A stretch of DNA of 64,000 nucleotides from Lentisphaeria bacterium (GCA_041690595.1 JAWLHB010000008.1:62001-126000); one strand, 5' to 3'; counted from the stretch's first letter, positions 33,706-59,709 are shown. Notes: a model not told the origin generated them from the letters alone. Program-made: numbers and translations.

Positions 33706-34800
33706 ATGAATGCTCCGAATCGCAACGCCACCGTCTTGAGACACGAAGAGGTCGCCGGCCTGTTGCGGGATGAGATTCTGCACAATTATCAGCCCGGCGA
33801 GCGCCTGCCGCCAGACACCGCGAACGCCGACCGATTCGGCGTCTCCGTGGTGACCCTCCGAGATGCCATGCGATTGCTGGTCAAGGAAGGCTTGCTCACG
33901 CGGCGACGCGGCAGCGGCACCTACGTCCGCGATCGGTCCCAGGACTCCCTGGCTCGCGTAGCCATCCTCTGCAGAGAGGATCTTGCGACCCACTCCGCCA
34001 GTCCCTATGGGCGGCTCGTGCTGCAGGCGTTGCAGCGCCGGATCAGAGCCGCGCGGTTCGTCCCTGAAGTCCATTTCGAAGTAGACGGCAACGTTGAAAC
34101 ACAATCCATCCTGCGCGAATCACCCGACTCTCCATTGACCGGCCTGGTCGTTCTCAACCCCATCCACGACGACCGGACGCTCGAGCGCGTGACCGGACTT
34201 GGCATCCCGGTCGTCTCGTGCAACCAGCACTTCCCTGGTGGATTCAAGGCTTCCAACGATAATTCCGGACTCGTGCGCGACGCTGTCCACTACCTGCACG
34301 ACCACGGCCGCTCGCGCCTGGCCCTGGTTACTCTGAACAAAGTCGGTTCCGTACACCCTGGGGTTGACGACTGGATGGAGGAATCCTTCCTCGCCGCGCT
34401 CGCTCGCCACGGTCTCACCTTCAACTCCGACTGGGTCTGCGGCGTCTCACCAACGGACGGCCCAGGCGCCGCCTTCGATGCAGTTCACCAGCTCTGGGAG
34501 GCGAAACGGGAACGCCCCGACGGCCTGCTGGTGACCGATGACACCATCTACCCTGAAGTCGCCATGGCCCTTCTGGAGTTAGACGTTGTTGTGCCCGAGG
34601 ATCTGCTCGTCATCAGCCACGCCAATCTCGGCGCCCGGATGTTCTGCCCATTCCCAACCGTGCGTTTCGCTTTCGATCCCGCCCGAATGGCGAACGTCTT
34701 GGTCGACGCCCTCTGCGACCTGATCGCAGGCAATACGCCATCGCCCCCCTTTACCGTCTTGCCATTCCATATCATCGAACCTGAAGGAGAAATGTCATGA
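33706..34800 (+). CDS. GntR-HTH / LacI-type sugar-binding transcriptional regulator (AraR-like architecture)
   Basis: [42 protein letters not shown], followed by a periplasmic-binding-protein-like domain ([18 protein letters not shown]). Confidence 0.9.
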
Positions 34801-35558
34801 AGAACTCGCCACACAAGCATTTCACCCTCATTGAGCTATTGGTCGTGGTAGCAATTATAGCCATACTGGCGAGCATGTTGCTTCCCGCCTTGAGTCATGC
34901 ACGCGCACGCGCTCGCCAGATTTCGTGCACCGGTAATCAGAAGCAGCTCGCCATGGGCGCTCTGATGTATGCCGACGCTCTCGATGACTGGCTGCCGGCG
35001 CATTACAAGTCGGATGGCACAGTTGATTCCTGGGGTATGGTCATCGTCCGTGATGCCTGGGGCACGCCAAGGCCGACCGGGCTCGGTCTCCTGATCTCTA
35101 CCGGGACCATCGGTTGGGATACTCCTCGGATCATGGCCTGCGATGGTGCCATCATCGACAGCGCGGCAGCGGACGCCAGTCGCTATGTCTCCTTCAATGC
35201 GCGAAAGAACATCCGCGAATTCGGTGCCAATGGGATTCACGATTATGTTTACTCTCCGCATGTGTTGACCGGCAATCGGCGACTTGGCAGCGATTACATG
35301 AACGAGCATCCGCAACTGCTCGCCGATGGCGGCTTCGCCCTCTTCAACGGTGTGAGCTATTATACTGCCTGGAACAACTACTGCGGACTGCGGCCACACG
35401 ACCTGCGGGGCATCAATATCGGCTTCACCGACGGCCATATAGCCTGGTACGATATCAACCGCGTTCGCCAGCTTGCCGGCGGCTATCACTTCACCGTCAA
35501 CTACATCACCAGCGGGCTCTGGTCCTCCCAGATCACGCGCAGCAAACTTGGCTTGTAG
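34797..35558 (+). CDS. Prepilin-type N-methylation / DUF1559 / H-X9-DG protein no. 1
   Basis: [27 protein letters not shown]...C.GNQKQ and C-terminal [18 protein letters not shown]-coupled to the regulator. Confidence 0.92.
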
Positions 35559-35838
35559 CTCTCAGAAACCTCGTCTCAAGCCCTCCGGCAAACACCCATT
35601 CCCGCCGGCATACCCGGGTGGTTCCATCATGGGGATCACCTGCTCCTGACAGATCGAATGCCACAGCTTCAATGTAGAACGAAGCGCGGCTGACCATAGT
35701 CAGGTAGCCTTCGAGGATCGACTCGTCAAGCTTTGTTCAGTTGTCAACGCGGCTCGACTTTGGATATCACCCGGAGTATTCTCCTTCTGCACCAAGAGCC
35801 CGCCGATACCTTAACCAGCGGAAGGAGATAACCGCCCT

Positions 35839-37206
35839 ATGCAAGCTGTAAACAGACCGAATATCATTCTGATCAATTGCGATGATCTCGGCTATGGCGA
35901 CCTGGCCTGTTACGGCTCTACAACCAATGATACACCCCACGTGGATCATCTGGCGGCAGAAGGCGTCCGCTTTACCGATTTCTACATGGCATCCCCTGTC
36001 TGCTCTGCTTCGCGAGCGGCGATGATGACCGGATGCTACTCGCAGAGAGTCGGCTTTGCCAACTGCCAGGTGCTCTTCCCTGGGCAGGCACAAGGCCTCT
36101 GTCCTCGCGAAATAACCATAGCCAGGCAATTGAAGCGTGCCGATTACGATACCAAGATCGTCGGCAAGTGGCACTGCGGCGATCAACCGGAGTTTCTGCC
36201 GACCAACCACGGCTTCGACGAATATTTCGGGATACCATACAGCAATGACATGGGCCGTCAGGTCGGCCGCGCTGACGCTCCGCCGTTGCCGCTGATGCGC
36301 AACGAAGAGGTCATCCAGCAGCAGCCGGACCAACGCGGCATTACCGAGCGATACGTGGATGAGTGTTTGCAGTTCATCCGCCGGAAACGTGAGCAACCCT
36401 TCTTCCTGTATCTGGCTCACATGTACGTCCATGTGCCGCTCTTCATCCCGAAGCAGTTCCTGGATCTCTCGCGCAATGGCGCCTACGGCGGCGCGGTCGC
36501 CTGCATTGACTGGGCGGTGGGCATGATTGAAGCGGAGTTGAACCGGCTGAGCATCAAAAACGAGACGCTGATTATCTTCACCTCCGACAACGGGTCGCGC
36601 GCCCGCGAGGAGGGGGGCAGCAACGCGCCCTTGCGCGGCAACAAGGCAGAAACATGGGAAGGGGGGCAGCGAGTGCCCTGTATCATGCGCTGGCCCGGAA
36701 AGATTGCGGCCAGTACCACCTGCGCGGGAATTGCCTCGTCGATCGACCTTTTTGCCACACTGTCCGAGATCGCGGGTGTACCGCTGCCGGCAGATAGAAA
36801 ACTGGACAGTGTGTCGCTGGTACAGACGATCTGCGATGGGGCGCCTTCCAAGCGCCACGTCTTCGCTTACTACAAGGGCCCGAACCTCGAGGCCGTGCGC
36901 AAGGGCGATTGGAAACTGCACGTCTGCAAGAACGGCCAGCCGTTGTCGGAGCTTTACAACCTGCGTGATGATATCGGCGAGACCCGTGACCTGTACGATA
37001 AGCATCCCGCTATCGTCGCCGATATCGAGGCTGAGGCCGAGTCCTTTCGGCGGATGTTCGGGGATCGTCGACTGGACCTTGTCGGCACGGAAGTTCGCGA
37101 AGTCGGTGTATGCAGGAACCCCGCACCGCTGACTGAATACGACGAGGACCACCCCTATATGATCGCCTGCTATGATCTGGCCGATATGCCGACCATGGCT
37201 GGATGA
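35839..37206 (+). CDS. Cys-type arylsulfatase-like sulfatase (no signal peptide)
   Basis: RPNIILINCDDLGYGD, CSASRAAMMTG, GKWHCG, FTSDNG, WEGGQRVP. Confidence 0.93.
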   Translation: MQAVNRPNIILINCDDLGYGDLACYGSTTNDTPHVDHLAAEGVRFTDFYMASPVCSASRAAMMTGCYSQRVGFANCQVLFPGQAQGLCPREITIARQLKRADYDTKIVGKWHCGDQPEFLPTNHGFDEYFGIPYSNDMGRQVGRADAPPLPLMRNEEVIQQQPDQRGITERYVDECLQFIRRKREQPFFLYLAHMYVHVPLFIPKQFLDLSRNGAYGGAVACIDWAVGMIEAELNRLSIKNETLIIFTSDNGSRAREEGGSNAPLRGNKAETWEGGQRVPCIMRWPGKIAASTTCAGIASSIDLFATLSEIAGVPLPADRKLDSVSLVQTICDGAPSKRHVFAYYKGPNLEAVRKGDWKLHVCKNGQPLSELYNLRDDIGETRDLYDKHPAIVADIEAEAESFRRMFGDRRLDLVGTEVREVGVCRNPAPLTEYDEDHPYMIACYDLADMPTMAG

Positions 37207-37282
37207 ACCATCAACCGGCTATTCTGCTGATCGGCGCCGCCAACGGGCGAATTTGGAAGAACCACTGAACTCAAGATCATGA

Positions 37283-38281
37283 ATGCATTTCAGATTTCGC
37301 TTTGAGCCGGCCCCGAAGCATGGCGGCTTCGCCATGGACGACTACTGGATATGGTGCGGCTCGGCGATCCGTGGCGACGATGGGCAGTATCACCTCTTCG
37401 CCTCGCGTTGGCCTAAGCGATATCCCTTTTACAACGGTTACGTCTGCTACTCGGAGATTGTCCGAGCCGTGGCCGACAATCCCCTCGGCCCCTTCACCTT
37501 TGTCGATGTGGTCGTGCCAACTCGTGACCTGCACTTCTGGGATGGAGGCCACACCCACAACCCCACCATCCACCGGATCGGCGGACGCTATTGCCTCTTT
37601 TACGAAGCGATAACCTTCCCGAAGGGGCGGCCATCGGATCGGGAGATCCGCAACGGCGGCCCGATGCGCGGCGGCAGTTACCCGGCAATCGGTCTTTGCA
37701 TCGCCGACTCCCTGGATGGACCATGGCAACGCTTCGACCGGCCTGCCTTGGCCCAGCGAGACGGTGCGTGGGACCGCGAGATCGTCACCAATCCCGCGGT
37801 CTGCGAAGCGCCTGATGGACGCATCCTGCTCTACTATCGGTCGTACGACATGACGGTCGGCCTGGCCGAAGCCGACGAACCGGAAGGGCCGTATCGTCGT
37901 ATCGGCGACGGACCGCTGCCCTCGCTGCAGCCTCCCAACCGCGTAGAAGATATGTACGTCTGGCACAGCGGTGAACACTTCGAGATGCTGGCCAAGGACT
38001 GCACCGGCGGCGTGCTCAGCGGTGAGCGTGGTGCCGGCGTGCATGCCACCTCGCCCGACGGCGTTGCCTGGATCTTCTCCGATCCCGTCAAGGCTTACTC
38101 GCGCACCATCGCCTGGGACGACGGCAGCGTCGCCTCCCAAGGCTGTCTGGAGCGTGCCCAGCTCCTCATCGAAGACGGTGAGCCGCGCGCACTCTATGCC
38201 GCTACTGGTGACGGTCCGGGCGGCTTCAATGCCTGCACCCGTACTTGGAACATGGCGATCTCACTTGAACCACAAAAATGA
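37283..38281 (+). CDS. Five-bladed beta-propeller glycoside hydrolase (GH43/GH117-like)
   Basis: WIWCGS..GDDGQYHLFASRW, THNPTI, DSLDGPW, TNPAV, EDMYVW, LERAQLL. Confidence 0.8.
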   Translation: MHFRFRFEPAPKHGGFAMDDYWIWCGSAIRGDDGQYHLFASRWPKRYPFYNGYVCYSEIVRAVADNPLGPFTFVDVVVPTRDLHFWDGGHTHNPTIHRIGGRYCLFYEAITFPKGRPSDREIRNGGPMRGGSYPAIGLCIADSLDGPWQRFDRPALAQRDGAWDREIVTNPAVCEAPDGRILLYYRSYDMTVGLAEADEPEGPYRRIGDGPLPSLQPPNRVEDMYVWHSGEHFEMLAKDCTGGVLSGERGAGVHATSPDGVAWIFSDPVKAYSRTIAWDDGSVASQGCLERAQLLIEDGEPRALYAATGDGPGGFNACTRTWNMAISLEPQK

Positions 38282-38316: not shown

Positions 38317-40146
38317 CTATTGTGATTCCTCCTCCATATTCTCATCGGCATCACGAAACTCGATTCCGGACAGTAAAAATCCGAATGGATCGCTGCCCGG
38401 GGCAGTGCTTTGAAAATGGGCGTAGCTGATGCCGTTCGGCCGACAATTGAGCAGGTCCAATGCTCTCTCTGCACCATCATCTACCGCCCAGGAAGCGGCT
38501 GCCAGGTCAGGGTCCTGACAGGATTTCCAACGGAGCGTGAGGAGATGGCGCTTCTCCGTGCTCAGCGCCTGGTGTCCGTTGATGCGACCGGCCGGATCGA
38601 TGTCGAGCAGATAGGCTGCATAAAGGGACACCGTCGGATCTTCCGGACTCACCCAGCGATCATGCAGAGATATCCGCGCGCCTTGGAATCCGGTTGCCAG
38701 GCGTAGTTGGCAACGGAGCGTCCCCGACGAAGCGGCGGGAAAGTTCCAGATGGCGCCCTGAGGTTCGTACAGCAGGCGCGGATCGGGATGCCGAGCTATC
38801 TGCAGTGCCTCGGACATCGGCTCGTCCGGGTCCGGGACCAGTTGCGGCCCTGGCCGTCGGTTGTGCGCACAATGGCCGCCATAGCCGTAGTTTTGCCCGG
38901 CAACGCCGCGAACCACCTGGTGGTGCGACCAGTTGACCAGGCCGCGCCCAAAGTCGTCGCTTCGTCTGCTTTCGTACAGCCAGTTCACATCGAAAATCAC
39001 CAGAAATCGACACTTTTCATGCTGCCCGACAGAGACCAGCACTTTGCCGTATGGCAGTTCTACGGCTTGACTCTGGTGTAGTCCTTTGTCGGCGCTGAGA
39101 TCGTTGCCGCCACTGCGACGATAGTCGCTATCGTTGCGCAGCGGATTGAGGAGCAGTTCTCTGAATCCACGCCAGGTTTCGCCGTCATCTTCCGAAATCG
39201 CCACATGAAATGCATTTCGATTAGTCAGGAATGCTCCCTTCATCCCTCGGCGAATGCTCTCCGCACACTCCGGCACCGATTCCCTGTCCTGTTCCGGCAA
39301 AACAGCGGCGTTGCACCAGAAGAGCATGATGCGGCCATCCTCGAGTCTCTTCAGCGTCGGCATTACCTGGCTGCCGGGAAAGCGCGAAGGTTCCGGCGCC
39401 GTCCACGTGACACCGCCGTCATCCGAGAAACTCTGGTTGAAGTACTCGTCGGCAGTGCGGGTCAGCATCCACAGACGACCATCGGATAGTTCAACCAACG
39501 TCGGTTCCTGATGCGGATCCGACCGCAACCACTTGTGCGGTGGGCGGATCGGAAAGGATGGTGGCGGGGGCACGTGGGCGGTATGCCAGTGTTCACCGTC
39601 GTCATCGGAATACAAGACAACGGCGACTCCCTTGGCGCAGCCGGCGATCAGTAGACGCCGCCGAGAGCGCATGGCGATAATCCCGCGCAGAGAGGAGAGC
39701 GTTCCATCGTACACCCGGCGAACCCGGAAGGGACCGTCTACATGATCGCCAAGGCATGCATAGGTACCTGGATCGGTCATGGAATTCGGTAGAAAACGCC
39801 AAGGACATTCTTCGACAGCACTGGAGACAATGGCTAACCAGCGGCCGCTGTAGGGGCTTTGGAATACCGCCCCCGGCGTGCCGGGGAGCATCGGTCTTTC
39901 CTGCCAGGAGAGACCGTTGTCCTGGCTGCGCATGTAGACGGGACGAATCTTCTCCGTATAGGTGGCCAGTCTCGGCCGCATGCTCAGCGGTACGGGAATG
40001 ACTCCATCCTTGGCCAGATAGCCACCATAGTGCCTGAGCTCACCGTCCGGTAACCGCATCAGATCGCGGCTGGCATTGGAGGGGGGAACCCCGACAATCC
40101 TTGGTTCATGGATTTCCTTCAGAAGTTTATCCGCATAGGATGGCAT
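38317..40146 (-). CDS. Asp-box (BNR) sialidase-family protein
   Basis: Asp boxes SQDNGLSW, SDDDGEHW, SDDGGVTW, SEDDGETW, plus EPTLVELSDGRLWMLTR. Confidence 0.82.
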   Translation of the reverse strand: MPSYADKLLKEIHEPRIVGVPPSNASRDLMRLPDGELRHYGGYLAKDGVIPVPLSMRPRLATYTEKIRPVYMRSQDNGLSWQERPMLPGTPGAVFQSPYSGRWLAIVSSAVEECPWRFLPNSMTDPGTYACLGDHVDGPFRVRRVYDGTLSSLRGIIAMRSRRRLLIAGCAKGVAVVLYSDDDGEHWHTAHVPPPPSFPIRPPHKWLRSDPHQEPTLVELSDGRLWMLTRTADEYFNQSFSDDGGVTWTAPEPSRFPGSQVMPTLKRLEDGRIMLFWCNAAVLPEQDRESVPECAESIRRGMKGAFLTNRNAFHVAISEDDGETWRGFRELLLNPLRNDSDYRRSGGNDLSADKGLHQSQAVELPYGKVLVSVGQHEKCRFLVIFDVNWLYESRRSDDFGRGLVNWSHHQVVRGVAGQNYGYGGHCAHNRRPGPQLVPDPDEPMSEALQIARHPDPRLLYEPQGAIWNFPAASSGTLRCQLRLATGFQGARISLHDRWVSPEDPTVSLYAAYLLDIDPAGRINGHQALSTEKRHLLTLRWKSCQDPDLAAASWAVDDGAERALDLLNCRPNGISYAHFQSTAPGSDPFGFLLSGIEFRDADENMEEESQ

Positions 40147-40309: not shown

Positions 40310-42412
40310 CTATGGCGACAGCAGGAACAGCTTCGTGGCCCCGGATTCGCGAGGGATGACCAGGCTACCTTCATCCAGTATCAGCGTGCCGCCATCGAAA
40401 AGCTCTTCGGCCTGACGGGCGCGTCCACCTGGCAAGTGGATGACGGGAGCGGGATCATCCTGCATGTGGATGGACAGCAGGCGATTGTTGATGTAGACCG
40501 GGTCGCCCCCTTCGTAGTAGATATGAACACCGGCCCGACGGGCGATTTCGCGGTAGATGGCCGCGGGCAGGTTGCCGACGGCGCTATACCAGGCGGTATG
40601 CGTTGCCAGTTCCTTGGAAGCCAGGGCCGGGGCACCGTCTGCTCGGTAACAGGCGTGGATCGCCGCCTCGGAATCGCTGATCTCGAAAAGCGGGGCTACC
40701 GGTGCGCTGAACCCATAATGGAGGCCGGCGGGCAGCCTGCCGAAAAAGCCTGACGGCGCAACGACGACCTCACTATCCTCCACCATGCGGCGCTTGACGC
40801 CGATGCCGGTCGTTGCCTGAATAGCCTCCACGGAGAATCCGTCGTCATGCGGATAACCGGGAGCATAAAACCAGAGCACGCTTCGGCCGTCGCTCTTGAC
40901 CTTTGTCTCGATGAAGCGTTGCGTTTTTGCTGAAATGCGAAAGGCGTTGAGAAAGATGATCAACCGGTATTGACCAAGCGGCAGTTGGTCGTGCTCCAGA
41001 TCGGAGAAAGTGTAGAGGTCGTAGGGGGCGCCCAGGCGGTTCAGTTCGTCCGGTGGCCGAACCAGCAGATCAGTGGCCAGTGGGGAGAATGCCTGCACGT
41101 CGTACATCGACTCGGGGTCGGCAAACACGGCGATCTCGGCGACGGTCCGCAGGGGTATGTCGTGCAGCCGTTGCTGAATGCGAACCATCTTGGCGACTTC
41201 GTCCATGAGCGCCGGGTCGTAATAGAACCCCCCAAAGAAATCGAACCACCAGAGGCCAGTTTGCTTGATCCGGGTCATGGCAAATTCCCGCCGCAGCACC
41301 ATGCGCGATTGGAATTCGTCCCGCAGGCAATTGTCGCTGCCCGGATAGGGGCGCCCGTTCTCGGCGGTGGGCGGAGCGACATGGGTGCGATGATCGATCT
41401 CCTGAAAGAAGAGCTTGTCACGCAGACCGATGGAATCAACCGTGGCCAGGAAGCCGCTGGCGCCCTCGAATTCGCGCGGCGCACCATACTTGGCCGGGGC
41501 AAAGATCATGTCGATATCCGGTGAGTTCCAGACCGGTTCGTAGGCAAGCTGACCTTCTTCGAGCAGTCGCTTGCCGCCGAGCTGAACCAGGTACCCGTAG
41601 AAGAGGCCGAGCAGCTTGCGATGCTGAAGCACCTCTTGTGCCTGTTTGGCGAAAAAGAGTATGGCATCGGCGATGATGCCGTGATGAAAGCGCCAGTAGT
41701 GGCGGGCGTCGGCATCCTCTACCGGATCGCGAAATACACCGTGGCTGGTGCGGTGGAGGACGTCGAGCGGGATCAGCCGAGCCTCCGGATCGCCGGTGAA
41801 ACGGCGGTAGCTGGCCTCCTTGAGCGGATGCGGGCGAATGACGGCGTCGGCCTTGCTGGACTGGGAGTTGGTGTACCACTCGGTGGAACCGCCGCAGAAG
41901 AGAGTGTAGGCAAAGACACGGTCGCCATACTTGCTTTCAAAGTAATGCAGCATGTCGCGCAGATAGCGCGTGGTGATCTCCCGCCAGGTGCTCTCCCCGG
42001 CCATTTCGACCAGGTTCCGAAAGGTGTTCGATGCTTCAGGATGCGCCTTCAGATACCAGTCGCGGGTGTCAAGCTGAAGCATGATGTTGAAACACGCATC
42101 CGGCGCCTCGTTGAGGAACACCTCCATTTGTCGGTCGATCGTCGCGAAATTGTACTGCCCCGGCCCTTCCCAGATCTCCCCGTACCTGGAATACGGAACA
42201 TCGAGGGTGCAGTTGAGCCCGCTGTGCAGGATGCTCATGAGGCGAACGCCAGCCTGATAGAAGTCGCGGACGTTGCGGGGCTCGGCGCGGAAAGAACGAA
42301 AGGCCAGCGGATCATAGACGGTATCCCTGATCCGTATCTTGAGCGTGCCCTGATGCCGGACCACTTCAGCGGTCAGCGGGGAGAGCCTGGCGGCTTGACC
42401 ATGTTGTGTCAT
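40310..42412 (-). CDS. GH42-like TIM-barrel glycoside hydrolase with trimerisation-like domain
   Basis: GPGQYNFATID, GGSTEWY, FQEIDHRT, GLWWFD, LGAPYDLY...YRLIIFLNAF, ARRAGVHIY. Confidence 0.7.
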   Translation of the reverse strand: MTQHGQAARLSPLTAEVVRHQGTLKIRIRDTVYDPLAFRSFRAEPRNVRDFYQAGVRLMSILHSGLNCTLDVPYSRYGEIWEGPGQYNFATIDRQMEVFLNEAPDACFNIMLQLDTRDWYLKAHPEASNTFRNLVEMAGESTWREITTRYLRDMLHYFESKYGDRVFAYTLFCGGSTEWYTNSQSSKADAVIRPHPLKEASYRRFTGDPEARLIPLDVLHRTSHGVFRDPVEDADARHYWRFHHGIIADAILFFAKQAQEVLQHRKLLGLFYGYLVQLGGKRLLEEGQLAYEPVWNSPDIDMIFAPAKYGAPREFEGASGFLATVDSIGLRDKLFFQEIDHRTHVAPPTAENGRPYPGSDNCLRDEFQSRMVLRREFAMTRIKQTGLWWFDFFGGFYYDPALMDEVAKMVRIQQRLHDIPLRTVAEIAVFADPESMYDVQAFSPLATDLLVRPPDELNRLGAPYDLYTFSDLEHDQLPLGQYRLIIFLNAFRISAKTQRFIETKVKSDGRSVLWFYAPGYPHDDGFSVEAIQATTGIGVKRRMVEDSEVVVAPSGFFGRLPAGLHYGFSAPVAPLFEISDSEAAIHACYRADGAPALASKELATHTAWYSAVGNLPAAIYREIARRAGVHIYYEGGDPVYINNRLLSIHMQDDPAPVIHLPGGRARQAEELFDGGTLILDEGSLVIPRESGATKLFLLSP

Positions 42413-43135: not shown

Positions 43136-43202
43136 AGCAAAAATCTTTTGCTTTCATCCTTGACATTCGCTTTGACGCGACTAATTTGACTGCACCGGTG
43201 CA
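43136..43202 (+). promoter_or_regulatory. Sigma70-like promoter bracketed by two palindromes
   Basis: AGCAAAA-ATC-TTTTGCT (43136-43152), TTGACA-16-TAATTT (43160-43187), TGCACCGGTGCA (43191-43202). Confidence 0.55.
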
Positions 43203-49366: not shown

Positions 49367-49386
49367 ACTGGAAGAAGGAGTCCTCC

Positions 49387-50271: not shown

Positions 50272-50302
50272 GTCCTCACCGCTCGAAAGATGAGTATCGT
50301 AC

Positions 50303-53300
50303 GTGAAACACTTGATGCCCTCGCCATGTGCAGTTGTCCTGATCTTCGGTTTCCTTGCGGCCGCGGCTTGGGCCGCGGAATCCTCCCCTGCGTATCGGGA
50401 AGAGATTCGCACGCCGCACTGGCAGTGGGTGGATCAACATGCCGGGGGCACAATCGACGTGCTCTTCATCACCAGCTTTCTCGGCGGTCGCGAACCCGAA
50501 GAACTGGCGCAACGCTTTGATATCGAGATCAAGGTGGTGCCGGTTTCCGCAAATCCGAGTGCCATCTCAACCGACTATGACGAGGCATACTTGGCCAAAG
50601 CGCTGGCCGCCAAGCCGGATGTCATCGTGGTATCGTACCGCGGCGCCTGGAGCAAGCTGAGCGAGGAGGCGCTGAGCGCATTGGCCAACGCAGTCGCTGA
50701 AGGAACGCCCCTGATCGCCCTTTCCGCGGCCAACGCGCCGGAGGCGCTGCGTAAAGATCCGCGGCCAGAGCTTGAACGCCAGGGCGAAGAGGTGGTGGAA
50801 CGAAACCTGGCGGTTCAGCGCCTGCACTTTCCCTGGGGGCGCGAAGGGGGACGCATCGGCCTGAACGTCAGCCGCTCTGGAGCCGGGCACTTCATCAATG
50901 TAGGTATGGGGCATGGCGCAGGTGGCAAGTTCAATTCCTTCATTCCTGGCGTCGAATCCCCCCCGGCAACGCCCGCGGAGTATGAGATCGCCTATGCTGT
51001 ATTCGCGCGGCTCATACGATGGGCGGCGAACAAGCAAACAGGGCCGGTCGGCACGTTGACGTGGCAAGGTACGCCGACGCTCGGCTCGCCACTTCCCGTC
51101 ACCGTTACATTGTCAGAACCCGCGGCCGCTGCCATTTCGCTGGAATGGGATCTGCACTCGCCGTTCGGCGAGCGCTTGGCCCAAGGCGCCGAGACGATTC
51201 CTGCGGGGACGTCCAAGGCGGTGAGTTTTGATCTTCCACTGCACCAGACGGGCGACCTAACGATCCAGTACCGGCTGCGGAGCGATAGCAAGGTGACGGA
51301 TTTCGGCGCGGCCGAGGTCCATGTCCCTTCTCCGCTCACCAATCTGGAGATCGATATCCCTGACCTGATCGCCGCCGAGGATCCGGTTTCGATCACATGG
51401 TTGGTGGAAGGAGATAGCGAGCCGGTAGATGGGTTTCTGCTACAGGTTTATGACGCAAGCGACCGGCTGGTGTCGTGGATGCGCCGCGGACCGGATGTCC
51501 GCGAGTGCCGTCTGGAGGGCTGGCACCCGCAAGACATTCGGCACCGCCTGCGGATGCTGGCGCTGGACGAAGCTGGATCTATCCTGCATGAAGAACGGGC
51601 GCCTCTGGATGTGCAGCTCGACCGTAGTCTCGATCCCTCTCGCTTCCATGTCATGGCCTGGGCTACCGAGGCCGGCGATCCGCAGGAGCAGTGGCGGTAC
51701 CATCGCCTGCGGCAGCTCGGCATCACCGCGCTGTCACCGATCGGTACGGGGATGGGGGTGCCGGAGATGGCGGCCGCCGCCGGGCTGCGACTCGCGCCAG
51801 TGAATATCTGCGTGCCGCCAGGCCGATTCAAGAAGGCGTTCGATCCCGTCAAGGAACGAGCAGCCCTGACGGCTTACAGCCAGGCCATCGCGCCGCTCTC
51901 CCCGCTTGGCTATTCCCTGGCGGACGAGCCGAGCGGCGTGGACCTGGCGGCGTTCCGCAACTGGGCCGCCGACATCATTCAGCAGCATGACCCCGGTGCT
52001 CGCGTGGGGTACTGCGGCACGCACATGAAGGTGGGCATGGACGTGCCTCGCATCCTGGCGAACTGCGACTTCATGATCCACTACTCCCCGCACTACCTCT
52101 ACACGTCGGACTTGTGGCGGGGCATCGAGCGGGACCTGCACCGGTCGTTCACGCCAAAGGGAGGCCTCAACACCGCTTACACCCATTACGTGCCTTGGGC
52201 CGATCACGAGCCCTACTGCCGCACCGTGCCGTGGCTGCTGCTCTTCGAGGAAGCCAACGGGATCTCCTATTTTGCCTCCGCGGGCGGCAATTTCAGCATT
52301 TTGGGAAGCGATCTGCGGACCACGCACGAGACGCGCTGGTGGAGCGAGGAGATCCGCGAGCTGCGGCAGGGCATCGCCACGCAACTCATTTCCATGCAAC
52401 GCGAGCATGGCGGAATTGCCTTGCTCTTCCCCACGGATCTGCCCGAACCGCTGGTTGGCTCCGCCGCCGGTGCCACGACCTTGTGGGCCGAGGCCCTGCG
52501 AGAGCTGAATCTCTCCTTCACATTCGTAAGGTCTGGAGAGCTGGCGAAGCTGGAACCGGGTACGACGCCGCTGCTCATCTGCCCGCCCGCACCTGTTCTT
52601 GCCAGCGACGAGCTTGAGGCCGTCCAACGGTATGTCGAGGCGGGCGGGGTACTGGTGGCGACGGCGCCCTTTGCGCTGGTTGCGCCCCAGCAGGCGAAAG
52701 CAACGGAGCCGCCCTTCTGGGAAGAGCAGCCCGAGGTCACTGCAAAAGCTCCGCTCCCCGAGCTCGACGAGCCGCGGGACGATGCCGCGATCGAGGAACT
52801 GCTGGAAGGGGCGCCGGTCAAAGAGCAGGAAGCTCCGCCCCCGCCCCCCGTGGCTGCAAGCCTGTTCGACATCGAACCGCTGTTCGGCCTGCGGCGCCAG
52901 CCGGCCGGCACCGCAGCGCGCGAGGAGCTTTTTGAAGCCATCGCCATGCGCTCCCGCATCCCCGCCGAGATCACTTGGGTAGAGGCGGGTGCCGAATTGT
53001 CCGCGCTCGAAGGTCGCACCGCGGGCGAATCCGGACTCATCGCTACTGAGGCAGAAGTCAGCGCCACCTTCCCTGTTCCCGACGACGATGCCCCAGAGTT
53101 TGCCAAAGATGCATTCTCGTCTCCAGCCGCGTTCCGCGTCCGCCGGGGCAGAGGAACGGCCTGGTACCTTAACGTCGTGCCGACCGCCGCGTCGGCCCGA
53201 TCACTTGCCCAGCATTTCAGAACCGTGGCCGGTGCTGCGCCGGCGCCCGCACAGGTGACGGTCGGTGATTCCCCGGCACCGGCGGTATATCTCTATCCCA

Positions 53301-54817
53301 TGGTGGGCGGTGGCGTACGTACGCTCGGAATCATCCAGGATTACGAACGCGTCAAGCCTGCACTCGAGAATAGAGAGGTCCAGACGGCGATCTACCATAA
53401 CCATGGCCCGCTGCGGTGGGCAGAACAGAACGCAACACTGAAACTGGACCAACCGGTGCACCTCTATGATATGCGCCGCAAACGATACCTGGGAGAGGTT
53501 GCGACGGCTGATTTCCTATTGCGTCCCGGACGCCCTGAGCTCTTTGCTCTGCTTCCCTACAAGGTAACGGATGTAGAGGTAAGCGCCGCGGGTTCCATCA
53601 GCGCAGGCGCCGCGTTGCAGGTGGATCTGCGCATCGCGACGGAATCGGGTAGCTGCGGCGACCACACGGTGCTGGTCCGGTTTGCACCAAACGAGGAGAC
53701 GATCGGGACCGGGTTTACGGGTACGTTCAGACTGCAAGCCGGCAAGGGCACCGTTACCGTACCTTCCACATTCAGTGATCCAAATGGAGAGTGGTTGCTT
53801 CAGGTGACCGACGTGCTCACCGGGATCCATTCAGAGACCGAGGTGCGCATAAAACCACCGGGGAATGTTGGACCGCTATTGCCCCGGAACGAGGTACAGG
53901 TCGAGAAGATCGCTCTCGACTGGCCGCGGGGCGAATGGAAGCCGTATCAGGATCCCGAGACAGAAACTCGTTCCAAGGTCGATGTCGGGGTCGGAACCAT
54001 TTCGCGCACCCCGATCAACTATGGACCGTTCAGCGGCATGATTTGCCTGCACGCAAAGAGGCTGATCGGCCTTCAGAGTCGCCAGGCCAACTATCAGTTC
54101 ACGTACATGGCCTGTAATGACTGGAAGAAGAAGGGCTGGGAGGACGAGCGCCGGATTCAGGCGCATTCTCTGTCGGGCCTGGGCATGAACCGGCCGGCGG
54201 GACATCTCTGGTACTACAACGGCTATATCGACATCTATTACGACGATGTGCGTGTAACCGGGTACCGCATTGCCGAGGTGAAGGAGGTCGATGCGGGTGA
54301 GGATGGTCGTGTCGACGTCAGCTGGGAATCGCCGGCGGGCGAAGCCGTCCTGTCATTTGGCCTTACATTAACAGGCGAGCCTCTGCTGCAGCAGCTTCAG
54401 GTGCGACCGTCCGTAGCGGTGGAATCCGTGAGGGTGGAATTCCGCTCCTACATCGGCGGCTTCGGCAATTCGGAGACCCGCTACGTGCGCACATCATTGG
54501 GCAGGAACGCCAATGTCACGGATCCGCGAGATGCGCCCTGGGCATTCTACGCCGACGATGTCAACGACCAGGCATACGGCAAGGGCATGGGTGCCGGTGC
54601 GATTCTGATACTGCCCGACGAGTGGGACCGCGTCCAGTACGGCATCACCGGCAGGCTCGAAAAGAAGGTCGATCTCCAGCCCGGCCAGACAGCGGCTTTC
54701 CATTGGGCCTTGTGGCTCTATCCTGAGCTGACCAACGAAGAAGCATTCACGGCTTTCGAACAGAGCAGAGATCAGGCAAAGAATATGCTGACTGATTTCT
54801 TTGGCGGGCAGAACTGA
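50303..54817 (+). CDS. Giant secreted GH42-like multidomain protein (1504 aa)
   Basis: Signal peptide. GYSLADEP TIM-barrel motif, trimerisation-like LLICPPAPVL..EAVQRYVEAGGVLVA, Ig-like GEWLLQVTDVLTG. Confidence 0.65.
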   Translation: MKHLMPSPCAVVLIFGFLAAAAWAAESSPAYREEIRTPHWQWVDQHAGGTIDVLFITSFLGGREPEELAQRFDIEIKVVPVSANPSAISTDYDEAYLAKALAAKPDVIVVSYRGAWSKLSEEALSALANAVAEGTPLIALSAANAPEALRKDPRPELERQGEEVVERNLAVQRLHFPWGREGGRIGLNVSRSGAGHFINVGMGHGAGGKFNSFIPGVESPPATPAEYEIAYAVFARLIRWAANKQTGPVGTLTWQGTPTLGSPLPVTVTLSEPAAAAISLEWDLHSPFGERLAQGAETIPAGTSKAVSFDLPLHQTGDLTIQYRLRSDSKVTDFGAAEVHVPSPLTNLEIDIPDLIAAEDPVSITWLVEGDSEPVDGFLLQVYDASDRLVSWMRRGPDVRECRLEGWHPQDIRHRLRMLALDEAGSILHEERAPLDVQLDRSLDPSRFHVMAWATEAGDPQEQWRYHRLRQLGITALSPIGTGMGVPEMAAAAGLRLAPVNICVPPGRFKKAFDPVKERAALTAYSQAIAPLSPLGYSLADEPSGVDLAAFRNWAADIIQQHDPGARVGYCGTHMKVGMDVPRILANCDFMIHYSPHYLYTSDLWRGIERDLHRSFTPKGGLNTAYTHYVPWADHEPYCRTVPWLLLFEEANGISYFASAGGNFSILGSDLRTTHETRWWSEEIRELRQGIATQLISMQREHGGIALLFPTDLPEPLVGSAAGATTLWAEALRELNLSFTFVRSGELAKLEPGTTPLLICPPAPVLASDELEAVQRYVEAGGVLVATAPFALVAPQQAKATEPPFWEEQPEVTAKAPLPELDEPRDDAAIEELLEGAPVKEQEAPPPPPVAASLFDIEPLFGLRRQPAGTAAREELFEAIAMRSRIPAEITWVEAGAELSALEGRTAGESGLIATEAEVSATFPVPDDDAPEFAKDAFSSPAAFRVRRGRGTAWYLNVVPTAASARSLAQHFRTVAGAAPAPAQVTVGDSPAPAVYLYPMVGGGVRTLGIIQDYERVKPALENREVQTAIYHNHGPLRWAEQNATLKLDQPVHLYDMRRKRYLGEVATADFLLRPGRPELFALLPYKVTDVEVSAAGSISAGAALQVDLRIATESGSCGDHTVLVRFAPNEETIGTGFTGTFRLQAGKGTVTVPSTFSDPNGEWLLQVTDVLTGIHSETEVRIKPPGNVGPLLPRNEVQVEKIALDWPRGEWKPYQDPETETRSKVDVGVGTISRTPINYGPFSGMICLHAKRLIGLQSRQANYQFTYMACNDWKKKGWEDERRIQAHSLSGLGMNRPAGHLWYYNGYIDIYYDDVRVTGYRIAEVKEVDAGEDGRVDVSWESPAGEAVLSFGLTLTGEPLLQQLQVRPSVAVESVRVEFRSYIGGFGNSETRYVRTSLGRNANVTDPRDAPWAFYADDVNDQAYGKGMGAGAILILPDEWDRVQYGITGRLEKKVDLQPGQTAAFHWALWLYPELTNEEAFTAFEQSRDQAKNMLTDFFGGQN

Positions 54818-54869
54818 AGAATGCCGCCCGATGCTGACCAAAAGGCGCCCGCATAATGGGGGGCACACC

Positions 54870-56870
54870 ATGGGAACCTATATGACTGAGCCAGAATCCT
54901 GCACCAACAGACTCGGCATGAAGATGCGGCCCGTTCTTGCCGGCCAATTCGAAATGGGATCGGCTGACGGCGAATTCAACGAACGGCCGGTGCATAGCGT
55001 CTGCATCTCACAGCCGTTCTTCATGTCAGCGACGCCCGTAACCAATGTCCAATACGAGGCTTACGACTCCAGCCACCGCGCTTTGCGGGGCAAGAACGGT
55101 TTATCCAATGAAGACAACGAGGCCGTCATTTTTGTTTCCTGGCACAATGCCGTCGGTTTCTGCGAATGGCTGAGCGAAAAGGAAGGGCGGCCTTACCGTC
55201 TTCCAACCGAAGCCGAATGGGAGTTTGCCTGCCGGGCAGGGACCTGCACACCCTATCATAGCGGCGAAGAGCTGCCCGAGCTCTATCATCGCGCGCAAGG
55301 CTTCTGTTGGGAACCGGTAGCTGTCGATCTGCGGGTGGGAACCACACCGCCAAACGCCTGGGGGCTGTACGACATGCACGGTCTCGTTGAGGAATGGTGC
55401 CTGGATTGGCATGGCGATTACCCGGCGGAATCAATGACAGATCCGGTGGGACCGGTTGACGGCGTTTTTCGGGTGACTCGCGGCGGCAGTCACAACACCG
55501 GCAGCCGATTTCTCCGGAGCGCGTGCCGGACAGGAACTTTGCCCGAGGACCGGAGTTGGGCAATCGGCTTTCGGGTTGTTCAGGCACCGCCTGCTGAAGG
55601 GAGAGGCCGGGAATCGGGCAGCTCAAAGGCTTGGCAGCGACAGGTTGCAGCGCTGAAAAAGGAGTGGACCCCAATTGGCGGAGCCGCCGAGGCGCCAGTC
55701 TTCTCTCCTCCACAACCTTACGTGATTCCGCCAGCACCTGACAGTGGCGAGCCGTTCTATCGTCACAACCATTGCCCGTCAATCGCGTGGTGCGACAACG
55801 GCGACCTCCTGGCCATTTGGTTTTCCACGATCAGCGAAGGCGGGCGCGAGATGACGATACTTGCCAGCCGCCGGCGGGCGGAAAGCCGCAACTGGGAGCC
55901 CGCCAGCGAGTTCTTCAATGCGCCCGGCCGCAACATGACCGGCTCCAGCCTGTTCAATGATGGAGAGGGAACGCTCTTCCACTTCAACGGATTGGGCGTG
56001 GCTGACGCATGGGCTGAATTGGCGCTGGTAATGCGGAATTCGCGCGACAACGGTGTAACCTGGTCCAAACCGCTGCTGATCGATCCCGAGCACCGGTTGG
56101 GGAATCAAGTCATCAGCGGCACATCCCTGACCGGTGACAAGATGATGATTCAGCCATGTGACGCCGTCTGGAGCGGCTCTGGCGGAACGGTTATTCACAC
56201 TAGCCGCGACGGCGGCCGTACCTGGGCAAACCCCGCCGACCAGAATCTGGAGACGCTCTTCCGCGAGAATGGTAGAGGCAACCGGATCGCCGGTATTCAT
56301 GCCGGAGTCGTTTCCCTGAAAGACGGACGGCTGATGGCGCTGGGCCGCAGTAACGACATCGACGAACGGATGCCCCTGAGCCTTTCCGACGATGGCGGAT
56401 GCTCCTGGAAGTACAATGCAAGTGAGTTCCCACCCATATCCGGCGGACAGCGCTTGGTCTTGATGCGCTTGCGGGAAGGACCGATTCTCCTTATCACCTT
56501 TACCGACGACGCCTCACGCGTGCCGCATTCCACAAACAAGGATTTCCCCAAAGCCGAACGTGTGGGCATGGTGATGAGAAGCGGCGCAGGAGATCTCTCG
56601 CGCGTTTTCGGAATGTTTGCCGCCCTTTCGTACGACGAGGGGCAAAGCTGGCCGGTGAAGAAACTCATTGCCCCGGCAAGCGGTAGCGGGACACTGGACG
56701 GTGGCGGTTGGACGGGACCGTTTACGTTCAGTCCTGCCTCGGCTGAACCGAAAGGGTATCTTGCGGCCACACAGTCTCCGGACGGCCTCATACACTTGGT
56801 ATCCAGCCGGTTGTACTATCGTTTCAATCTGGCGTGGATCGAGGACACTTCAGGAGCAGAATCATCATGA
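54870..56870 (+). CDS. FGE-sulfatase (SUMF1-like) domain fused to an Asp-box sialidase-like propeller
   Basis: FEMGS, YRLPTEAEWEFACRAG, PNAWGLYDMHG, RVTRGGS, IGFRVV. Asp boxes SRDNGVTW, SRDGGRTW, SDDGGCSW, SYDEGQSW. Start codon uncertain (54870 or 54882). Confidence 0.85.
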   Translation: MGTYMTEPESCTNRLGMKMRPVLAGQFEMGSADGEFNERPVHSVCISQPFFMSATPVTNVQYEAYDSSHRALRGKNGLSNEDNEAVIFVSWHNAVGFCEWLSEKEGRPYRLPTEAEWEFACRAGTCTPYHSGEELPELYHRAQGFCWEPVAVDLRVGTTPPNAWGLYDMHGLVEEWCLDWHGDYPAESMTDPVGPVDGVFRVTRGGSHNTGSRFLRSACRTGTLPEDRSWAIGFRVVQAPPAEGRGRESGSSKAWQRQVAALKKEWTPIGGAAEAPVFSPPQPYVIPPAPDSGEPFYRHNHCPSIAWCDNGDLLAIWFSTISEGGREMTILASRRRAESRNWEPASEFFNAPGRNMTGSSLFNDGEGTLFHFNGLGVADAWAELALVMRNSRDNGVTWSKPLLIDPEHRLGNQVISGTSLTGDKMMIQPCDAVWSGSGGTVIHTSRDGGRTWANPADQNLETLFRENGRGNRIAGIHAGVVSLKDGRLMALGRSNDIDERMPLSLSDDGGCSWKYNASEFPPISGGQRLVLMRLREGPILLITFTDDASRVPHSTNKDFPKAERVGMVMRSGAGDLSRVFGMFAALSYDEGQSWPVKKLIAPASGSGTLDGGGWTGPFTFSPASAEPKGYLAATQSPDGLIHLVSSRLYYRFNLAWIEDTSGAESS

Positions 56871-58645
56871 AAGGCAGCGCCAAACCTATAGAGGCTCAGG
56901 CCGATTTGGTCATTGTTGGTGGCGGCATAGCCGGATGCGTGGCGGCGGTGGCCGCTGCCAGAATGGGCACGAAGACGGTACTGGTTCAGAATCGCCCGGT
57001 GCTCGGCGGCAACGCCTCTTCCGAAGTCGGGCTGCTGATGGCCGGTGCCGACCGCGATTTCCCTCACGTCCGCGAGACTGGCATCGTCGAAGAAATCGAC
57101 CTGCTCAACCGCTACCACAACCACGAGGTCCAATGGCGCAACTGCATCTCCGACGCCACCCTCGAAAACCTGGTCAAGGAAGCCGGGGTGGATCTGTACC
57201 TGAACACACACATTCACGCGCTGCAAATGCAGGGCCAGAGTATCCGCTGGGTCACCGGCGCCCAACAGGCGACAGAACGGATCTTCCAGTTCGAGGCGCC
57301 GGTCTTTGTCGATGCCACCGGCGACGGCACGCTCCTGGCCATGGCCGGCGGCGCCTTCATGACCGGCACGGAGGCGCGAAGCACCTTCCAGGAGTCGCTG
57401 GCGCCGGAAACGGCCTCAGACGTCATGCAGGGCTCCACCCTGATGTATCGCGTCAAGGACATGGGCAGGCCTGTTGCCTTCCACAGCCCCCCGTGGGCTT
57501 ACTGCTTTCCAAGTGCCGACGATCTGCCTGTGAAGATCAGATTCCTGGACAAGCCCCAACTCTGGATCGAATTCGGCGCCAGGCTCGATACCATCGGAGA
57601 CGCTGACGCGATCCGTGAGGAACTGCTCAAGATCCTTTACGGGGTCTGGGATCACGTCAAGAATCACGGTGACTATGGCGCGGACAACTACGTGCTGTCG
57701 TGGGTTGGTTCGGTGCCCGGCAAGCGCGAAAGCCGTCGTGGGGTCGGCGACTACATCCTGAACGAGAACGACCTCACGCACCCGACGGATCTCCCCGACG
57801 CGGTCGCCTATGGCGGCTGGCCGATCGACGTTCACAACCCCGACGGCTTTTATGCCAGGCACAAGTGGCTCGATTACACACACCTGAAGAGCATCTACCC
57901 CATTCCTTACCGCTGCTACTACTCGCGGGATATCACCAATTTGTTCCTGGCCGGCCGGATCGTCAGCGCCAGCCACGTGGCCCACGGCTCGATCCGCCTG
58001 ATCCGCACCTGCGGGATCGGTGGCCAGGCCGTCGGCACGGCCGCCGCCTTGTGCAGGAAGTATGGCATGACACCGCGCGCGCTCGGCCAGGAGCACATCC
58101 GCGAGCTGCAGCAGGAACTGCTCAAACACGACGGCTTCATCCCGGGCATTCGCAATGAAGACCCTCGCGACCTGGCGCGCCAGGCCCGGGTCTCCGCATC
58201 GTCAGCGTTTCGCGATGCCGAGACCGGGTACCTCTTTGCTGCCGACAAGGTCATCGAAGGTCTCTCCCGCGGACGAATGAACGACGAAAACCTCTGGATA
58301 TCTGCTCCCATGGACGAAGATCGGGAACCATGGATTGTGCTGGAGTGGGAGGCGCCTGTCAAGCTCAATCGCGTTCAACTGACCTTCGATACCATGGTCA
58401 GGGAACAACGGTTCTTTGACCGGCCGGTTCTTGGCCCCCTGCCCACCTGCATTCGCAATGGCCGGCTGGAGGTGCGTGATGACAGCGGCAGCTGGCGGAC
58501 AGTCGCCCGCATGGATGACAATTACCTGAGGCACCGGCTTCTGATCTTTGCGTCGGTCGCGACCGACGCCATCCGGTTTTGCGTTGAAGAGACCCAGGGC
58601 GACCCACATGCCAGGCTCTATGAGGTGCGGGCTTACAAGGAGTAA
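56867..58645 (+). CDS. FAD-dependent oxidoreductase (PF12831-like) with C-terminal discoidin-like domain
   Basis: VIVGGGIAG, RPVLGGNASSE, FVDATGDG, GKRESRR, GGWPIDVH, IPYRCYYS, C-terminal ARLYEVRAY. Confidence 0.9.
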   Translation: MKGSAKPIEAQADLVIVGGGIAGCVAAVAAARMGTKTVLVQNRPVLGGNASSEVGLLMAGADRDFPHVRETGIVEEIDLLNRYHNHEVQWRNCISDATLENLVKEAGVDLYLNTHIHALQMQGQSIRWVTGAQQATERIFQFEAPVFVDATGDGTLLAMAGGAFMTGTEARSTFQESLAPETASDVMQGSTLMYRVKDMGRPVAFHSPPWAYCFPSADDLPVKIRFLDKPQLWIEFGARLDTIGDADAIREELLKILYGVWDHVKNHGDYGADNYVLSWVGSVPGKRESRRGVGDYILNENDLTHPTDLPDAVAYGGWPIDVHNPDGFYARHKWLDYTHLKSIYPIPYRCYYSRDITNLFLAGRIVSASHVAHGSIRLIRTCGIGGQAVGTAAALCRKYGMTPRALGQEHIRELQQELLKHDGFIPGIRNEDPRDLARQARVSASSAFRDAETGYLFAADKVIEGLSRGRMNDENLWISAPMDEDREPWIVLEWEAPVKLNRVQLTFDTMVREQRFFDRPVLGPLPTCIRNGRLEVRDDSGSWRTVARMDDNYLRHRLLIFASVATDAIRFCVEETQGDPHARLYEVRAYKE

Positions 58646-58933
58646 CAACACCACCAATCCCAAGCCCGCGAGGTGGCGCTCCATCATTCTCATCAGTCCA
58701 GATTCCCAAAGATGAGTCCATGAACATTGGCCAACCATTGGACCCGTTGATTGACTTCGGCGGTTCTGGGGTAGCGGAACTGGACGGCACAGAGTGGCAT
58801 GACAAGAAGGGTAGCCGCGCCTGGCCAAGGCACCGAGCGGATTTTCTCAATCACGCGAGCCGAATGCCCCTGTGGTGCGGATCGGCTGCCAGTCGAACGT
58901 GGTCGTTTCATTCTACTTGCCCGCCCTGTCATC

Positions 58934-58962
58934 TTGATATTTCCGATGGAATATCTTATACT
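58934..58962 (+). promoter_or_regulatory. Near-consensus sigma70 promoter with an inverted repeat in the spacer
   Basis: TTGATA-17-TATACT, with GATATT-N8-AATATC at 58936-58955. Confidence 0.65.
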
Positions 58963-59004
58963 TAAAATTATGCAGTAAAATCCCGCGATATGGAGATACA
59001 TCCG

Positions 59005-59709
59005 ATGAAAGTGCGTTTCCAGACAGTATCCTTCACCTTGATCGAGCTACTTGTCGTCGTGGCCATTATCGCTATTCTGGCCAGCATGCTTCTGCCGGCG
59101 CTCTCCAAGGCGCGCGCCTATGGCCAGCTCGCCGTCTGTACCAACAACCTCAAGCAGATCGGTCTCCAGATCTCCATCTATGCCGATGACCACGGCGGGC
59201 TGGTATGCGAAGGTTGGGACGGGACGGAAGAGTGGATTCACCGCATGCACCAGACCGGATATCTTGACTATCCCTATGCGCCCGGGAGTACCTGGAAGAT
59301 CTCCCCGAGCAGCATTTTCTTTTGCCCTTCCGACAAGTATGTGCAGCAGAACTACGGTACCTATGCCGGCAATGGGGAGTTCATGGACAACAACTATCCG
59401 AACGCGGGTACCCGACTTGGCGGGAAGATCACCTCGGTCTACGATGCCACCGCCCTCATGCTGGTCACCGCCAGCCACAGCTACCACTACATGATCTACA
59501 AGTACGCCTACCCAGGCCAGGATATTTATGTTGTCCCGACCAGTCTCACCTACCGTCACTTCGATGACGCCAATGCCGTTTTCGGTGACGGTCATGTCGC
59601 CCGTGTCCCGGGGCCGATTCCCTGCTATACCTACAACCGCGGGGGCTATCTCAACAGTGAATATCCTGATAGAACCGCGTATAATCTATTCTGGTCCGGC
59701 AACAAGTAG
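59005..59709 (+). CDS. Prepilin-type / DUF1559 / H-X9-DG protein no. 4
   Basis: [66 protein letters not shown]. Confidence 0.93.

Follow-up and report, generated by a model that had tools for sequence, protein, structure and literature searches.

Variable DUF1559-type pilins in sugar-regulated glycan utilization units of a Lentisphaeria bacterium and their possible role in polysaccharide capture

The SusC/SusD-type polysaccharide utilization loci (PULs) of Bacteroidota bring together glycanases, a regulator, and a variable gene for specificity within a single inducible unit. Bacteria of the Planctomycetota-Verrucomicrobiota-Chlamydiota (PVC) group play a major part in breaking down complex glycans, in guts as well as in sediments and the sea, and we ask here how polysaccharides are captured without SusC/D. 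Our subject is a stretch of 64,000 nucleotides (the window; positions 62001-126000 of contig C8, JAWLHB010000008.1) from the genome of a Lentisphaeria bacterium (8.1 Mb, 61.5% G+C, 97% complete), which carries four genes for prepilins of the DUF1559 type.

Minor pilins that bind a ligand or cargo include ComP of Neisseria, PilB/PilC of Streptococcus sanguinis, TcpB-TcpF of Vibrio, and CofB-CofJ of enterotoxigenic Escherichia coli (ETEC); their likeness to the present case lies in the pilin fold as a specificity module. By their N-terminal motif, Pfam matches, and the names of their homologues, the window prepilins resemble the H-X9-DG prepilins with DUF1559/SBP_bac_10 (PF07596) and N_methyl (PF07963) domains. 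This family is heavily expanded, scattered, and often flanked by genes encoding signal peptides (PMC8567305, PMC4807772); the passages of these papers devoted to it state neither a function nor an order of regulator, pilin, and glycanase, a relaxed position -1, or a link to secretin operons. The MUL2 locus of Akkermansia (Amuc_1098-1102) ties a type IV-like machine to glycan acquisition in Verrucomicrobiota (PMC13174399). A further likeness is found in the cluster pgaptmp_000046-60 of Verruconatronum alginivorum, for which an alginate-induced 251-aa pulG-like pseudopilin with 67 homologues is reported (PMC13274419).

Our analysis points to a genome in which most sugar-regulated polysaccharide-degrading clusters own one highly variable pilin and outer-membrane glycan importers are few. 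We read this as a use of type IV filaments that would function in the manner of a PUL but is no SusC/D PUL. The pilin is probably a filament subunit specific to its glycan unit; that the glycan is what it binds we propose tentatively. The initial annotation of the window had described each pilin as a SusD-like adaptor of a shared filament machine. Placement, machinery, and co-induction agree with this, but the pilins are linked most strongly with regulators and with large exported proteins, and not with sulfatases.

Placement of the pilins in the genome and in related genomes

Among the 5701 genes called with our own gene caller, an N-terminal profile identified 177 stereotyped DUF1559-type pilins in the genome, including the four of the window. 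A GntR/LacI-type regulator made up 64 of the 134 co-oriented upstream neighbors that were not themselves pilins, compared to 57/3747 for other genes and 26/1132 for control genes from the same neighborhoods. Seen from the other side, 100 of the 134 regulators of this type lie within three genes of a pilin. Downstream neighbors that reach 600 aa or more and begin like a signal peptide, as called by a heuristic predictor, were similarly frequent (65/131 vs 249/3747). The median spacers around the pilins are 32 bp upstream and 50 bp downstream. We subsequently scanned all 125 co-oriented downstream neighbors, excluding pilins and regulators, against Pfam and hand-counted the hits relative to 133 random genes. 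Glycoside hydrolase (GH), polysaccharide lyase (PL), carbohydrate esterase (CE), carbohydrate-binding module (CBM), or lectin domains were found in 43 of the neighbors and 15 of the random genes; if DUF4838 is counted too, whose proteins share their N-terminal domain with GH67/GH115, the numbers rise to 56 and 16. Regulator and glycan-domain counts exceed the background, and the pilins are not randomly placed. An enrichment of glycan enzymes, sulfatases, and GntR/LacI genes beside DUF1559 genes had been suggested as a test; it holds for regulators and glycan domains, but sulfatases had to be dropped on the genome-wide counts.

The named homologues belong mostly to Lentisphaeria, Victivallales, and Omnitrophota, and all class-level relatives carry the pilin family, in keeping with a Lentisphaeria genome. 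To follow the layout across lineages, we sampled 77 loci from a species-level genome collection, 75 of them with a pilin called from crude open reading frame (ORF) calls, and pooled the counts over genomes. Among the Lentisphaeria-labelled loci, a co-oriented GntR/LacI regulator lies upstream in 10/27 (three more have a divergent AraC and one an FCD regulator), and a glycan-domain or sulfatase gene lies downstream in 14/25. The number of pilin candidates per genome ranges from 11 to 366 across 61 genomes of the class and correlates with that of LacI-type regulators (rho 0.72, or 0.65 with genome size removed). The correlation with DUF4838 is weak, and none is left with sulfatases once genome size is removed. 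With TonB receptors it is negative (partial rho -0.54, genome size removed): at least 100 pilin candidates occur in 27 of the 61 genomes, 11 of which have no TonB receptor match.

That adaptor and enzymes are induced together, another claim of the initial annotation, is supported in V. alginivorum, a strain of another class, by proteomics with one replicate per substrate (PMC13274419, Table S3). The pilin pgaptmp_000050 accounts for 0.513% of protein on alginate and for none on mannose or sucrose. It tops every other protein of the alginate cluster, including PL29 (0.021%) and the adjacent protein (0.168%), as well as GspG (0.064%). A pilin annotated as DUF1559 (pgaptmp_003013), encoded in a GH32 operon, was detected only on sucrose (0.033%), with the adjacent lipoprotein at 0.044%. 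By our count, the table lists 52 pilins of 197-276 aa (rows for PilV, FimT, and PulJ excluded), of which 14 were detected and three exceeded 0.02%. Laminarin-induced rows named "type II secretion system protein" in the supplements of PMC11361711 could not be assigned to the pilin family and were not used.

Separately, three paralog families of 1000-1250-aa exported proteins beside pilins, without Pfam match at E 1e-4, are candidate new glycanase families (f16, f41, and f160; examples at L029:10281-13892, L021:12777-16517, and L084:1-3537). At L192:1365-3020, a 551-aa ORF upstream of a pilin has a DUF1559 match at residues 342-393; it may be a fusion, or the ORF may have been called too long.

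Pilin proteins and filament machinery

The four prepilin genes of the window, as initially annotated, are real. All four proteins match N_methyl (E 3e-5 to 5e-4, two of them above the cut-off) and SBP_bac_10/DUF1559, where three pass the cut-off and the remaining one reaches 17.4 bits vs 23.3. The C-terminal H-x(about 9)-DG signature of the family is present in all of them, but the H-X9-DG motif described before is exact only in pilin 4, with x10 in pilins 1 and 2 and x13 in pilin 3; genome-wide, H-x7-12-DG occurs in 130/176 members and exactly x9 in 74. No match to T2SSG, the major pseudopilin GspG of about 140 aa, was found in the window pilins, which are 213-294 aa long. Of 3040 sliding windows across the genome, 34 reach their density of four per 26 kb.

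Pilin 2 is predicted to adopt a type IV pilin fold. Its model (pLDDT 86) has a long N-terminal helix at residues 2-53 and an alpha/beta head, and the top 24 of 48,161 chains in a structure search (VIA) are all pilins or pseudopilins, with ComP and PilV/PilX among the fold matches; the best match, 6xxd, has a modest Z score of 6.7 (rmsd 3.2, 117 residues aligned). Foldseek returned no match for the model at E 0.001, and the nearest ESM Atlas clusters are pilin-like families without a name, from Verrucomicrobiota, Armatimonadota, and Lentisphaerota. On the side of the scaffold, the 177 pilins share a short basic leader, Phe at +1 and Glu at +5 (each in 176/177), and near-invariant features, namely two cysteines, a Tyr-Gly-x-Asn strand, and a His...Asn...Asp-Gly-His end. 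The heads have a median identity of 20%, with hypervariable loops rich in Tyr, Trp, Gly, and Asn; Tyr and Trp together make up 10.3% vs 5.4% in other exported proteins.

Prepilin peptidases follow a rule of Gly at position -1. In the 177 pilins this residue is Gly in 14, Ala in 16, and most commonly Arg (55), and none of the window pilins has Gly or Ala there. Other pilins of the genome, including minor pseudopilins encoded in the T2SS (type II secretion system) operon, also mostly lack it (Gly in just 4/23), and therefore the specificity of PilD has probably shifted lineage-wide toward tolerating other residues. Loci from Verrucomicrobiae and Planctomycetota retain Gly or Ala. In the single prepilin peptidase (contig C11 11189-12445, L245), the two Pfam domains are separated by a long insertion, which may relate to the relaxed residue.

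Type IV filament machinery, expected to be encoded outside the window, is present in the genome. We counted 19 matches to T2SSE-family ATPases above the cut-off, eight of them full-length and PilB/GspE-like and 11 shorter, which by length alone would be PilT-like or Tad-type; six secretin matches, 15 PilC-domain matches, and one PilD complete the set. A full T2SS operon including a true GspG is located on contig C53. On contig C7 (123277-133481, L236), a DUF1559-type pilin leads an operon for a secretin, PilM, two membrane proteins, and PilB, with a 732-aa exported protein and a TPR/mannosyltransferase-like protein, which we consider a candidate dedicated machine. Of 26 genomes having the C7-type secretin, 8 carry a pilin directly before it (in two more the contigs are cut short), as does one Kiritimatiellia locus. 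This secretin was not found in 35/61 genomes at E 1e-30 with one query, including those of the pilin-rich families f7, f9, and f11, and therefore cannot be called a universal machine. On contig C2 (283500-291062, L242), a 218-aa exported protein, PilM, two ORFs, and a secretin follow one another in an order like that of Akkermansia MUL2, but the 218-aa and 341-aa proteins have no sequence match to the MUL2 structures.

Outer-membrane importers are scarce. The genome encodes four TonB receptors and 12 sugar-type ABC binding proteins; SusD_RagB had no match in this 97%-complete genome, and no adjacent susC-susD pair was found. The initial statement that pilus-assembly, SusC/D, TonB, and ABC-transporter families are absent from the window is borne out by a Pfam scan of its 40 proteins.

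Two further observations concern pilin-like and secretin genes elsewhere. A 1500-aa ORF on contig C3 (215713-220215, L241:7714-12216, - strand) joins an ABC transporter, with membrane and ATPase domains, to a secretin; it may be a true fusion, or two genes may have lost the stop codon that separated them. On contigs C11 (176000-182000), C33 (5300-11500), and C17 (80400-88900; L251-L253), other pilin-like genes form three clusters with large partners that lack annotation, much like sets of minor pilins and tip adhesins.

Genes of the window

Table 1. Features between the first regulator and the fourth prepilin gene (window coordinates)
Feature	Position	Strand	Remarks
Regulator 1, GntR-HTH + LacI-type sugar-binding	33706..34800	+	Pfam GntR E 1e-15, Peripla_BP_3 E 1e-17
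DUF1559-type prepilin 1	34797..35558	+	253 aa; His at -1; Pfam
Sulfatase, without evident signal peptide	35839..37206	+	Pfam Sulfatase E 5e-57; 280 bp after pilin 1
Possible GH43-like protein (weak)	37283..38281	+	Pfam E 0.002, below cut-off
BNR-repeat (sialidase-like) protein	38317..40146	-	Pfam BNR_2 E 3e-17
684-aa protein without Pfam match, divergent from regulator 2	40310..42364	-	
Perfect 12-bp palindrome, candidate operator, not beyond chance	43191..43202		31 bp after TTGACA hexamer
Regulator 2, GntR-HTH + LacI-type sugar-binding	43241..44359	+	Pfam GntR E 2e-14, Peripla_BP_3 E 8e-25
DUF1559-type prepilin 2	44386..45027	+	213 aa; Glu at -1; type IV pilin fold predicted
953-aa exported modular glycosidase-like protein	45039..47900	+	11 bp after pilin 2
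(alpha/alpha)-barrel protein, weakly similar to GH47/GH127	47897..49192	+	
DUF1559-type prepilin 3	49387..50271	+	294 aa; Ser at -1; Pfam
1504-aa exported protein	50303..54817	+	31 bp after pilin 3; weak GH42 trimerisation-domain match
FGE-sulfatase-like domain fused to BNR (sialidase-like) domain	54801..56870	+	Pfam E 7e-40, 3e-20
FAD-dependent oxidoreductase (PF12831)	56867..58645	+	Pfam E 3e-84
DUF1559-type prepilin 4	59005..59709	+	234 aa counted from second ATG; Ser at -1; next gene CtaA

Carbohydrate-active genes had been placed directly after three of the pilins (Table 1). Large exported proteins directly follow pilins 2 and 3. Behind pilin 1, the sulfatase is genuine but stands at a distance and shows no evident signal peptide, and the GH43 assignment is below threshold. 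Behind pilin 3, all the genes named are there, but the identity of the giant protein as GH42 is weak: its GH42M/DUF4350 matches in Pfam are weak, and a sequence search of the PDB with it gave no match. The 953-aa protein has no Pfam match either; it is modelled as beta-sandwiches, a GH2-like barrel, and a C-terminal CBM9-like domain, and the model is closest to GH2 beta-galactosidases/glucuronidases (Foldseek E about 1e-11, low global TM).

Each pilin had also been described as first or second behind its own promoter and a distinct palindrome. The positions are right, since pilins 1 and 2 come second behind their regulators (the first four bases of pilin 1 lie within the end of regulator 1) and pilins 3 and 4 follow intergenic gaps of 194 and 359 bp. 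Single sigma-70-like hexamers occur at 33664, 43160, 49356, and 58957, but when 42900-50400 was scanned strictly for promoters, none turned up on the + strand ahead of regulator 2 or pilin 3. The palindromes are present as well, but when five intergenic regions were shuffled 200 times each, equally long ones arose in 93 to 170 of the shuffles; as operators they were therefore given no statistical weight.

Elsewhere in the window, a large glycan cluster without a pilin (19269-33617) lies directly before regulator 1 and contains two GH123_N-type giants, an esterase fusion, and GH35/42-like and MGH1-like genes. Other regions encode an arginine succinyltransferase pathway (AstA, aldehyde dehydrogenase, AstB; 55-4563), an AAA_21 (AbiEii-like) ATPase with a small partner (6593-8535; G+C is lower at 6001-8000), and a pair of SWIM and SNF2 helicase proteins (15239-19096).

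Possible roles of the pilins

We read the units as polysaccharide utilization units in which a sugar-sensing regulator, one pilin, and a large exported glycanase follow one another in this order. When its sugar is present, the regulator would release the unit, as suggested by the analogous units co-induced in V. alginivorum (PMC13274419). The single PilD, tolerating residues other than Gly at -1, would cleave the pilin, which would then join a type IV filament machine that the units share; candidates for this machine are the C7 and MUL2-like C2 operons. The hypervariable loops on the conserved scaffold most likely recognize the glycan of the unit, and the filament may hold the polysaccharide at the secretin or draw it toward periplasmic enzymes. 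We infer that processing, filament assembly, glycan binding, and uptake would together replace the role of SusD/SusC in genomes with few TonB receptors. In its boldest form, an inducible library of glycan-binding pilins with antibody-like loops would replace SusC/SusD in Lentisphaeria and parts of the other PVC bacteria, and a shared retractile filament would pull polysaccharide through a secretin into the periplasm, as competence pili do with DNA; as a whole, we consider this unlikely.

We tentatively prefer glycan capture over an adaptor function in enzyme secretion, in which a dedicated pseudopilin recognizes the adjacent large enzyme and a shared T2SS or pilus exports or displays it, degradation being extracellular or surface-bound. 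We think such a cargo adaptor doubtful, even though the large exported neighbors, the full T2SS operon, and the pairing of pilins with enzymes fit it. The best match of a pilin shares the neighboring enzyme family in 20/61 cases vs 2.2 expected, and enzyme-family labels need 24 changes on the pilin tree vs 30.6 when shuffled (0/200 shuffles as low), on a quick tree of 46/176 pilins with 29/43 branches open. In 3/3 genomes with near-full-length matches to the 953-aa enzyme, a pilin lies directly upstream of the orthologue, and a CBM9-like domain is found in 17/65 large exported pilin neighbors vs 16/232 distant proteins. But the similarity of the regulators co-varies with the units too (5/26 vs 29/3966), and the pairing is therefore explained by co-duplication of whole units, of which duplicates exist in the genome. 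Judged by these similarities, the pairing shows units duplicating together and does not separate glycan binding from enzyme binding. Moreover, homologous large neighbors are missing in 51 of 69 related pilin pairs, and the 12 pilins before one DUF4838 family require 8 changes on the tree. Pilins preceding DUF4838 enzymes of the same family are barely more similar than average (18.4 vs 16.4 bits), which, together with unit 1 lacking an evident exported cargo, is awkward for a cargo adaptor. A predicted complex of pilin 2 (25-201) with the neighboring enzyme (190-926, its N-terminal domain omitted for size) scored 0.00 with a mark of 0.32 and was informative neither way. In known T2SS, one set of pseudopilins serves many substrates. 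For V. alginivorum, the authors propose that the T2SS exports the lyases; the induced proteins also include a PulG-size pseudopilin, and the sucrose pilin and its lipoprotein are near 1:1, but the alginate pilin is 3- to 24-fold above its enzymes (PMC13274419).

The scarcity of Gly at -1 could also mean that the pilin stays outside the filament pathway as an uncleaved inner-membrane anchor, whose periplasmic head binds oligosaccharide or organizes enzymes and transporters; in Tuwongella, members of the family fractionate differently from plain pilins (PMC8567305). We regard this as improbable, given the almost invariant Phe and Glu with the short basic leader, the similar lack of Gly in other pilins of the genome, the Gly or Ala retained in verrucomicrobial and planctomycete members, and the member leading a secretin operon. 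The chances are slimmer that the filament is a regulated adhesin or a variable surface structure, attaching the cell to a glycan-bearing particle or evading phages, with no role in uptake or export. MUL2 has been read as an attachment system (PMC13174399; further described in the preprint 10.64898/2025.12.30.696933), type IV pili help Fimbriiglobus to adhere to chitin (cited in PMC11131199), a constitutive 251-aa pilin makes up 0.9-1.8% of V. alginivorum protein (PMC13274419), and hypervariable heads would suit such a function. Phage evasion, however, leaves one pilin per sugar regulator unexplained and does not account for induction on soluble alginate and sucrose (PMC13274419), while attachment via glycan binding overlaps with the capture that we favor. 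Finally, the pilins might be passengers that merely co-duplicate with glycan units in a genome rich in both, as the whole-unit duplicates might suggest. About a quarter of the pilins, like pilin 4, have no co-oriented downstream gene or a housekeeping neighbor. But order and orientation are fixed, spacers are short, local control genes rarely follow a regulator, the layout recurs in Lentisphaeria loci, and the scaffold residues are invariant; this explanation is largely refuted and very improbable.

Several results weigh against glycan capture itself. The link to regulators and large exported proteins suits secretion or display of enzymes roughly as well as it suits a role like that of SusD. 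The glycan-domain signal largely consists of big exported proteins: with length matching (at least 600 aa; first 122 downstream and 128 random proteins), enrichment is not significant, either without DUF4838 (34/82 vs 8/23, p 0.37) or with it (47/82 vs 9/23, p 0.095). Neither sulfatases downstream (3/131 vs 50/3747) nor multi-pass transporter genes nearby (14/881 vs 132/5499) are enriched, and pilin 4 is followed by the gene for the heme A synthase CtaA, with no glycan gene downstream. The layout is rare in loci outside the Lentisphaeria label (regulator 1/44, glycan gene 1/46), in family f6 no pilin lies within 1.5 kb of the C7-type secretin (15/15 genomes), and the cross-genome counts are of first-look candidates among related genomes, so that significance is overstated. 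Structure searches found no lectin or CBM fold for the pilin head, which does not exclude one, and Gly at -1 is scarce. Loops rich in Tyr and Trp are also typical of protein-binding surfaces. The proteomic data come from one replicate per substrate in a different class, with a shallow mannose proteome, and the family membership of the constitutive and alginate pilins was inferred from size and annotation, not sequence (PMC13274419).

For DUF1559, a very large family without a function, the fixed layout gives each pilin a predictable substrate and names candidate machines. This function and the capture of polysaccharides without SusC/D both reduce to single-gene experiments in a cultured strain with inducing substrates already published. 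The pilin could also serve as a marker gene for PUL-like units and new glycanase families, as many downstream partners have no Pfam match.

A layout of one pilin per glycan operon was not found described as a system in our literature search, whose coverage of subscription papers is thin, and a term search within PMC3542564, PMC13526803, and the supplements of PMC11685898 gave nothing on it. V. alginivorum differs in having TonB systems, and the sections of its description that deal with the pseudopilin neither state a pilin-per-operon rule nor name DUF1559 (PMC13274419). The synteny of MUL2 does not occur in the window, and the comparable order on contig C2 comes without sequence match; MUL2 consists of a single conserved locus encoding one pilin-like protein, whereas here 177 variable pilins are spread over glycan units. 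Ligand- or cargo-binding minor pilins are encoded by one or a few genes per genome, in contrast to the regulated library of over a hundred found here. With SusC/SusD PULs, the window and the genome share the co-location of regulator and glycanases, but there is no SusD match, TonB receptors number only four, and the variable gene encodes a pilin instead of an alpha-helical lipoprotein.

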